64,000 bases of DNA, taken from the NCBI GenBank assembly GCA_965116925.1, contig OZ220744.1, forward strand, positions 5,280,001-5,344,000. The letters are read 5' to 3'. Shown piece after piece: positions 40,134 to 40,433 of the stretch. Origin of the DNA: Candidatus Poribacteria bacterium (GTDB lineage: Bacteria; Poribacteria; WGA-4E; PCPOR2b). How positions within the stretch are numbered: position 1 is the first letter of the stretch; each line of letters opens with the position of its first letter. A model generated the notes under the pieces. The model searched no databases, was not told the DNA's origin, and was given only the letters and a program-made list of their open reading frames with translations. The translations under genes and the position numbers were made by a program.

Positions 40134-40433
40134 TTATACATTATCATGAAATAACGAAAATGTGGTTGGTTCGACGGAGGACACCGGCGTCTCAAAATCA
40201 GGGAACAGCCAGAGTTGATTCGTCTCATCTGCCTCTGAGGTATCCTTAACAGCTAGTTCGTCAGGTGGAATCGTTGAATTGCCCCAGAAATCCATCTGCT
40301 CCACCGTTTCCACGTTCTGATTTGATGCAATACGGGCGTAGATCCGGGCGCGTTGCTCAGAGGAGATCGCTTGCGAGGCGAAGACTTCGCGCATCAATTG
40401 TATGAGTGTGTCGGTAAACAAATCTGTTTGCAT
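40134..40433 (-). CDS. 99-aa acidic protein with repeated beta-clamp-binding-type motifs
   Basis: ATG overlaps the stop codon of the dnaN-like gene (TAATG); QTDLF (aa 2-6), QMDFW (46-50), QLWLF (73-77), FSLF (92-95). Confidence 0.72.
   Translation of the reverse strand: MQTDLFTDTLIQLMREVFASQAISSEQRARIYARIASNQNVETVEQMDFWGNSTIPPDELAVKDTSEADETNQLWLFPDFETPVSSVEPTTFSLFHDNV

Follow-up and report, generated by a model that had tools for sequence, protein, structure and literature searches.

The window, a 64,000-nt stretch of a Candidatus Poribacteria contig, carries a three-gene cassette in which the gene of an ECF sigma factor is followed by that of a divergent paralog of the beta sliding clamp (DnaN) and by an ORF for a 99-aa acidic protein with clamp-type peptide motifs (Table 1). 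The cassette is real and conserved, and it is an apparently undescribed ECF circuit around a clamp that retains only its peptide pocket. Our main reading, to which we assign a probability of about 45%, is that it constitutes a self-contained, autoregulated ECF switch that would monitor the peptide pocket of the sliding clamp through predicted binding and would deliver decoy pockets as its output. A preliminary description of the small ORF had proposed a free-standing clamp inhibitor or cross-linker; the autoregulated ECF operon, the channel-less clamp and the DLF end of the family's sigma factors point instead to a regulatory circuit.

Table 1. Features of the cassette, with positions in the window.
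Feature	Positions	Strand	Remarks
ECF sigma factor, 185 aa, GTG start	41623..42180	-	Pfam Sigma70_r2 and r4_2
Sigma tail SLKDLL, candidate Gln-less pocket ligand	41626..41643	-	family form (S/T)(L/I)xDLF-COOH
Divergent beta-clamp (DnaN) paralog, 377 aa	40433..41566	-	pocket kept; DNA-channel and dimer residues lost
99-aa acidic protein	40134..40433	-	start codon overlaps the paralog's stop
Two-helix N-terminal hairpin, anti-sigma helix 3/4-like	40308..40421	-	residues 5-42
Motif 1, QTDLF	40416..40430	-	residues 2-6; partly conserved; continues into helix 1
Motif 2, QMDFW	40284..40298	-	residues 46-50; non-canonical
Motif 3, QLWLF	40203..40217	-	residues 73-77; canonical QLxLF clamp-binding motif (predicted)
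Motif 4, TFSLF	40149..40163	-	residues 91-95; weak
-35 box CGATGC, ECF-type promoter	42241..42246	-	conserved
-10 box CGTCATA, cassette ECF-type promoter	42218..42224	-	conserved
Terminator-like hairpin between the cassette and the upstream DUF4037 gene	42267..42298	-	14-pair stem, then T run

The proposed coupling of the tiny ORF to dnaN was borne out, as the TAA of the paralog and the ATG of the ORF share one base, and by its pattern of substitution and its family the ORF, which gives 99 aa on translation of the window, is a real gene. Of 2259 candidates, 143 protein clusters matched a profile built from 13 orthologs, and in comparisons with 11 relatives dN/dS was 0.22-0.59. Upstream TTG starts, leading to 128-aa and 395-aa forms, were dismissed because they are not conserved; among the loci listed, the 128-aa start is found only in genomes G000 and G017. 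On metatranscriptome contigs of close relatives (four runs of one study) the small ORF is mostly covered at a depth of 4-7, but this cover extends across the promoter and the neighbouring genes, so that DNA carry-over may account for the signal. The protein has a pI of 4.05, with 13 D/E versus 1 K/R in residues 37-99. AlphaFold predicts helices at residues 5-19 and 25-42 and an unstructured tail (mean pLDDT 63), in agreement with the acidic, probably disordered linkers that had been anticipated. Searches with the protein yielded nothing beyond ENT at E 0.15 in Pfam, no match in NCBIfam or in the Atlas, a single chance match (E 0.3) among PDB sequences and nothing below E 4.9 with Foldseek.

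Clamp-type motifs were scored as canonical when they fitted Q-aliphatic-x-[LM]-[FL] or the hexamer form, following the accessible text of PMC11139829, and per-motif counts refer to 120 listed homologs, of which 112 and 118 are ungapped at motifs 1 and 4, respectively. On this definition the 99-aa protein combines a single strong canonical motif with up to three weaker putative ones; the earlier count of three or four consensus matches therefore stands for QLWLF and overstates motifs 1, 2 and 4, which are not its equivalents. QLWLF is exact in 103 homologs and fits Q..[LM][FL] in 116. Judged by its pN/pS of 0.07, versus 0.50-0.73 in the linkers and 0.51 in motif 4, it is the motif under the strongest selection. 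Motif 1 is partly conserved, fitting Q..[LM][FL] in 56 of the 112 ungapped homologs. At the motif 1 position, distant members have QQDLF or QEELF. The W of motif 2 is invariant (120/120) and its Q occurs in 71/120; in proteins P0127, P0128, P0130 and P0131 the same position reads QLRLW, QLYLW or QLHLW, a QLxLW form. The repeat protein P0129, one of 14 matches, was judged spurious and removed. Motif 4 ends in LF in 65/118 ungapped rows and starts with Q in none, many relatives having xSPLL instead. In PMC11139829 a W in position 5, like an F in position 4, is reported to lower affinity for the E. coli clamp.

One canonical motif is present in 99/120 homologs, two in 9 and none in 12, and under the looser pattern Q..[LMF][FW] three per protein are found in 59/120. 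The proteins of the distant L052 clade, which cannot be aligned, have QL(M)LPGF (QLMLPGF) and Q(M/L)ELPF (QMELPF) in 5/5 cases, so several clamp-like motifs per protein are a trait of the family that extends to its distant members. Among the other ORFs of the genome (5219, non-overlapping), no 95-residue window holds three Q..[LMF][FW] or two strict Q[LMIVT].[LM]F motifs, and composition shuffles under the same two criteria gave P values of 4e-5 and 9e-5, which are optimistic because the patterns were picked after the protein was known; to that extent the statement that such motifs are unlikely to arise by chance was upheld. Ordinary clamp motifs, QMGLF and QLALF, occur in two further proteins of the genome. 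Judging from their N-termini, the former protein is probably DnaE-like and the latter MutS-like. One small protein (L009:3349-3696, genome G021) has the motif 3 block duplicated internally, as QLWLF followed by RLALF, which indicates that motif number can change by tandem repeat.

The second gene of the cassette encodes a protein that matches solved beta clamps in HMM searches and is predicted to adopt the three-domain clamp fold (AlphaFold pLDDT 88; Foldseek TM 0.76-0.84 to beta clamps). Its TIGR00663 score is 83.8 bits, and that of its counterpart at the distant locus L044 is 127.7, both below the cut-off of 137.65, versus 295.4 for the cassette clamp of L052, above it. The housekeeping dnaN is located elsewhere, beside recF. 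For the 21 close paralogs compared, pocket, dimer and DNA-contact residues were mostly those given in PMC11139829, a few interface and channel positions being presumed, and the alignment has about 18% identity, so that single residue positions are uncertain. At the 18 positions of pocket subsites I and II the paralog is 70% identical to the host DnaN and 57% to that of E. coli, versus 17% identity to the host protein outside the pocket and 23% on the dimer face. Residues R152, T172, G174, R176, M362 and P363 are invariant in 21/21 paralogs. On the channel side, R24, Q149, Y153 and Y154 are retained in none of them, R73, R80 and R205 are mostly replaced by D, E or N, K12 appears as R in 18/21, and the net charge of the six helical segments is -0.5 versus +5.2 in ordinary Poribacteria DnaN. 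At the dimer interface, in 21/21 paralogs L273 is absent or G/S, E304 is A/V and F106 is Q/R/H; a rewired homodimer is possible. This conservation pattern is what selection on the pocket alone would leave, and it characterizes the protein as a putative pseudo-clamp. The L052 clamp keeps most of the basic channel residues, and those of L044 and L046 are intermediate. In the clamp tree, L044 and L046 form one supported clade with the close paralogs, and L052 lies among ordinary clamps, on long branches.

A separate observation concerns family f2, in which the cassette is lacking: in 96/102 of its genomes the DnaN C-terminal domain is matched 2-4 times, the genomes being kin and the counts therefore dependent. 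At the loci read, for example L051 (G075), L055 (G074) and L065 (G093), these matches often stand in tandem and away from dnaA and recF, and some lie in open frames of about 580-615 aa.

The sigma factor scores above the cut-off of TIGR02937, reaches no named subfamily and has a dN/dS of 0.10-0.23. Cassette sigmas run about 15 residues beyond region 4, and of 23 C-terminal ends, 19 are DLF, two are DLL (G000 included) and two are other, the two most distant sigmas ending in LLK or ELE. The tail pattern is found in 0/38 other sigma-like ORFs of G000, and a DLF end in 2/5505 ORFs. This tail has neither a Gln nor a linker. As stated in the accessible text of PMC11139829, LF alone is able to bind the pocket (subsite I); going by its residues, the tail may be a Gln-less pocket ligand or just a plain capping helix.

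Upstream of the sigma start, at a distance of 38-59 nt, the promoter pattern CG[AG]T[GCT]C-N16-CGTC[AT]TA is present in 23/23 upstream regions, a set that omits L024 as a near duplicate; its form in L052 is CGATAC-N16-CGTCTTA. In a scan of the whole G000 genome the cassette promoter scored 31.0 and the runner-up 20.9. Moreover, the exact pattern occurs as a single copy in each of 5/5 genomes, always before the cassette sigma, with none in the controls. In G000, which encodes its own LexA, no second strong promoter was detected that would point to targets elsewhere, such as genes of DNA repair. As the only strong promoter precedes the cassette, the sigma probably transcribes its own operon and little else, in which case the paralog and the small protein would be both regulators and output. 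The terminator-like hairpin of Table 1 is also present in aligned genus-level relatives; terminator-like matches in the region number 2 versus 2.8 in shuffles and are not significant alone, and scans for sigma-70 promoters and terminators were at chance level. A second, slightly altered cassette promoter with its ribosome-binding region lies at L018:1500-1560 (G021) with no sigma gene behind it, and is probably a relic of a duplicated cassette.

The N-terminal hairpin is the longest conserved block of the small protein, with R15, F18, R28, I31 and R34 at 99-100%, and it is also retained in L044, L046 and L052. Its basic RARIYARI helix (SSEQRARIYARI, residues 24-35) had been said to recall the sigma-binding helix of soluble anti-sigma factors. 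When the hairpin was compared with neighbouring anti-sigma domains by hhalign, it matched ASD helices 3-4 weakly (E 0.019, probability 2.5%), with a score that beat 100/100 column shuffles. A reciprocal search with a hairpin HMM found ECF-adjacent genes marginally enriched (P 0.026, versus 0.26 for the reversed control), none of them reaching 8 bits. In the AlphaFold prediction the four-helix ASDI domain, whose helix 1 lies on sigma region 4, is absent, only two helices being present. The proposed likeness is thus sustained by the placement of a helical N-terminus, and in sequence it is weak. As for position, the small gene occupies the +2 place of the ECF operon in 22/22 close loci, as well as at L044 and L052, and is the only anti-sigma candidate of the cassette. 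In the nearest ECFs outside the phylum an ordinary anti-sigma gene is mostly next, and some of these are shortened to a comparable pair of helices. In class I anti-sigmas it is helix 4 that contacts sigma region 2 (PMC7406223). Position and shape suggest an anti-sigma role for the small protein.

The complete trio, in the same order, is present in 22/22 intact close loci from 21 genomes, with varying flanks, and also in the distant L044 and L052; L045 and L046 are interrupted by contig ends. Within 176 genomes of the phylum, the ECF subgroup of the cassette comprises 25 loci from 24 genomes, each scoring at least 234 bits. Below these, a broken copy scores 165 bits and the remaining ECFs at most 157. 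All 25 loci of the subgroup adjoin a DnaN paralog, and among the matches listed no DnaN-like ORF was detected at 59 non-cassette loci of related sigmas outside the phylum, nor at 80 further such loci. Viral contigs gave four weak generic clamp fragments. Presence is patchy, in 7/19 genomes of the genus and in 0/112 of family f2. The clamp tree, with its long branches, does not show a single origin of all cassette clamps; such an origin is argued for by the common sigma subgroup, the promoter and the hairpin. Deletion remnants, in which the N-terminal half of the sigma is joined, in frame or not, with either the paralog or the small gene, were observed at L017:1080-1900 (G029), L014:1200-1700 (G035) and L043 (G057); in these broken copies the small gene is frameshifted, truncated and not found, respectively. 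Genome G060 has two intact, diverged cassettes (L036 and L047). Flanking genes depend on the genome and include DUF4037, ABC permease, methyltransferase and sugar isomerase-like genes, among others. In the window, positions 32828-46551 are a run of same-strand accessory genes whose order varies between close relatives, with DUF4037, kinase-like and MacB-type permease matches in Pfam and with probable methyltransferases and a probable phosphotransferase, judged by eye. Further on, at 49721-51876 (+), two tandem paralogs of 346 and 357 aa begin with (F)YHGTT and end in HEAT-like repeats; their start presumably recalls ADP-ribosyltransferase-like folds.

We infer each binding step of the switch, as well as the sign of its regulation, from these features. 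At rest, the hairpin of the small protein, as half an anti-sigma domain, would cover the core-binding face of the sigma, and it would be held there as QLWLF, and perhaps the DLF tail of the sigma too, docks on the pockets of the pseudo-clamp. A foreign or surplus pocket ligand, such as a griselimycin-type antibiotic, a toxin of the SocB/RipA type or a phage protein, would displace these peptides, freeing the sigma and amplifying the operon. New pseudo-clamp would then soak up the ligand as a decoy, and once pockets were free again the complex would switch the sigma off. The inducing signal in this scheme is a guess. Amplification of dnaN alone gives griselimycin resistance, according to the accessible text of PMC11621423, and hence extra pockets can protect. 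Against the scheme, the rules for the E. coli clamp would make motif 2 and the sigma tail poor ligands, and the degenerate dimer face means that a two-pocket ternary complex is not assured. As the paralog in L052 is an ordinary clamp, the cassette may ancestrally have delivered a functional spare clamp. In its full form, in which a duplicated clamp has turned into a pocket-only receptor and decoy that binds the sigma tail and a multi-motif anti-sigma, senses pocket occupancy of the replication clamp and induces itself, we hold the scheme tentatively, at somewhat less than even odds.

The same parts could be wired in reverse, with the pseudo-clamp as the anti-sigma that binds the DLF tail and the small protein as an anti-anti-sigma parked on the housekeeping clamp. 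Blockage or scarcity of the housekeeping clamp would then move the small protein to the pseudo-clamp and release the sigma. Gene order fits this arrangement, the paralog being in the usual +1 position of an anti-sigma, and so do the specificity of the DLF tail to cassette sigmas, the ability of LF alone to bind the pocket and the fact that QLWLF is a stronger motif type than the Gln-less xDLF. Yet the conserved hairpin would be left without a role, the two most distant sigmas have LLK or ELE tails instead, and a stronger competitor made in 1:1 coupling would be apt to keep the switch permanently on; we regard the reversed arrangement as unlikely. A toxin-like role of the small protein, as a multivalent inhibitor of the clamp in the manner of SocB or RipA, with the pseudo-clamp as its decoy antitoxin and the sigma as a stress driver, seems quite improbable. 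An antidote-before-toxin order with overlapping stop and start codons would suit such a system, as would the patchy presence (7/19 genomes of the genus), the damage to the small gene in G029, G035 and G057 and the binding of SocB to the pocket via an ordinary motif, which is reported in the accessible part of PMC9690074. It leaves the hairpin and the DLF tail of the sigma unexplained, however, and joint decay of all genes is equally expected for any dispensable unit. To our knowledge, a positive ECF loop that acts on its own operon only is not the usual control of toxin-antitoxin pairs, which also counts against it.

The roles match those of gp45, gp55 and gp33 of phage T4, in which gp55 and gp33 carry C-terminal clamp motifs and gp33 is a repressor by itself but an activator in the presence of the clamp (PMC7892883), and L052 has a clamp with most basic channel residues. 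A second clamp loaded on DNA could accordingly tether the sigma as gp55, with the small protein as a gp33-like co-activator, and transcription would report clamp loading at nicks or stalled forks. This is less likely here because the channel is lost: R24, Q149, Y153, R73 and R80 are gone from 21/21 close paralogs and the channel is approximately neutral. In addition, a gp33-type substitute is unneeded, since the sigma has a region 4 itself and its promoter a conserved -35 box, and no regulon was found outside the operon, which leaves this possibility very doubtful. Just as doubtful is that the motifs serve a soluble anti-sigma as generic hydrophobic signals for docking or degradation and that the paralog binds something else. 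W-rich forms (QLWLFP, MELW, QLxLW) are indeed unusual for clamp ligands and 12/120 homologs have no canonical motif, but Q-x-x-L-F is kept in 116/120, the distant clade has independent hexamer-type motifs, and the one well-kept surface of the neighbouring protein is the pocket for such motifs. Three of the readings (the switch that senses the pocket, its reversed arrangement and the T4-like clamp-activated sigma) have an ECF sigma coupled to a clamp pocket.

By the features compared, the cassette is a member of none of the known systems that resemble it. Closest in logic is the T4 gp45/gp55/gp33 system (accessible parts of PMC7892883 and PMC9690074), in which a sigma and a small partner with C-terminal clamp motifs link transcription to the clamp; these are unrelated phage proteins, gp45 is a working replication clamp that tracks DNA and gp33 replaces sigma region 4. 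The cassette, in contrast, combines a complete ECF sigma with a cellular beta-clamp paralog that lacks channel residues, in an autoregulatory loop of one operon. Closest in parts are the pairs of ECF sigmas with class I anti-sigmas (ASDI) and the two-protein control of SigY by YxlC and YxlD (PMC7406223 and PMC7826278, in their accessible text). Like these pairs, the cassette is an autoregulated ECF operon with a small soluble protein whose helix-loop-helix is placed as ASD helices 3-4. Unlike them, its small protein has no helices 1-2, zinc motif or membrane anchor and carries a tail with clamp motifs, and a clamp paralog lies between the sigma and the putative anti-sigma. The 2021 reclassification of ECF sigmas (PMC7826278) nowhere uses the words "clamp", "dnaN", "polymerase III" or "Poribacteria" in its main text. 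Closest in possible purpose is GriR, the dnaN paralog of the griselimycin cluster, together with dnaN amplification (accessible text of PMC11621423), as an extra protective clamp gene. GriR lies in a biosynthetic cluster, whereas the cassette paralog shares about 20% identity with the host DnaN, has lost DNA and dimer contacts and brings its own sigma and peptide partner; no antibiotic biosynthetic cluster was found beside the cassette in the loci read, which have about 1.5 kb of flank in most relatives. SocB (PMC9690074) and RipA (PMC12795458) are small proteins that act on DnaN, SocB sharing the pocket, and for their antitoxins the accessible text of these sources describes no clamp paralogs and no ECF loop. 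In full-text searches of openly accessible papers, no literature on an ECF-dnaN paralog cassette was found; nor was any cellular regulator that reads the clamp pocket out transcriptionally, or any clamp paralog acting on an ECF sigma, in the literature searched. TipA and AlbA are sensor-sponge resistance regulators, that is, autoregulated decoys that sense the drug, of the one-component MerR type. They share the logic of the proposed switch; the cassette would instead be an ECF system with a target mimic.

Polymerases and repair enzymes converge on the clamp pocket, which griselimycin-type antibiotics and bacterial toxins target, and there is a good chance that the cassette is a new kind of sensor. 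If the model of a pocket-sensing switch holds, it would represent a new mode of input for ECF sigmas and the first case of a pseudo-clamp that acts in signalling or as a decoy. The three genes would then make a portable reporter for clamp inhibitors, and their promoter would lend itself directly to biosensing of as yet unknown antibiotics, toxins and phage proteins that target the clamp. The lineage would then show the steps from a true spare clamp (L052) to a pseudo-clamp (L044, then the close clade). Moreover, clamp-blocking agents would be a real pressure on Poribacteria, consistent with the 2-4 dnaN copies in the cassette-free sister family.
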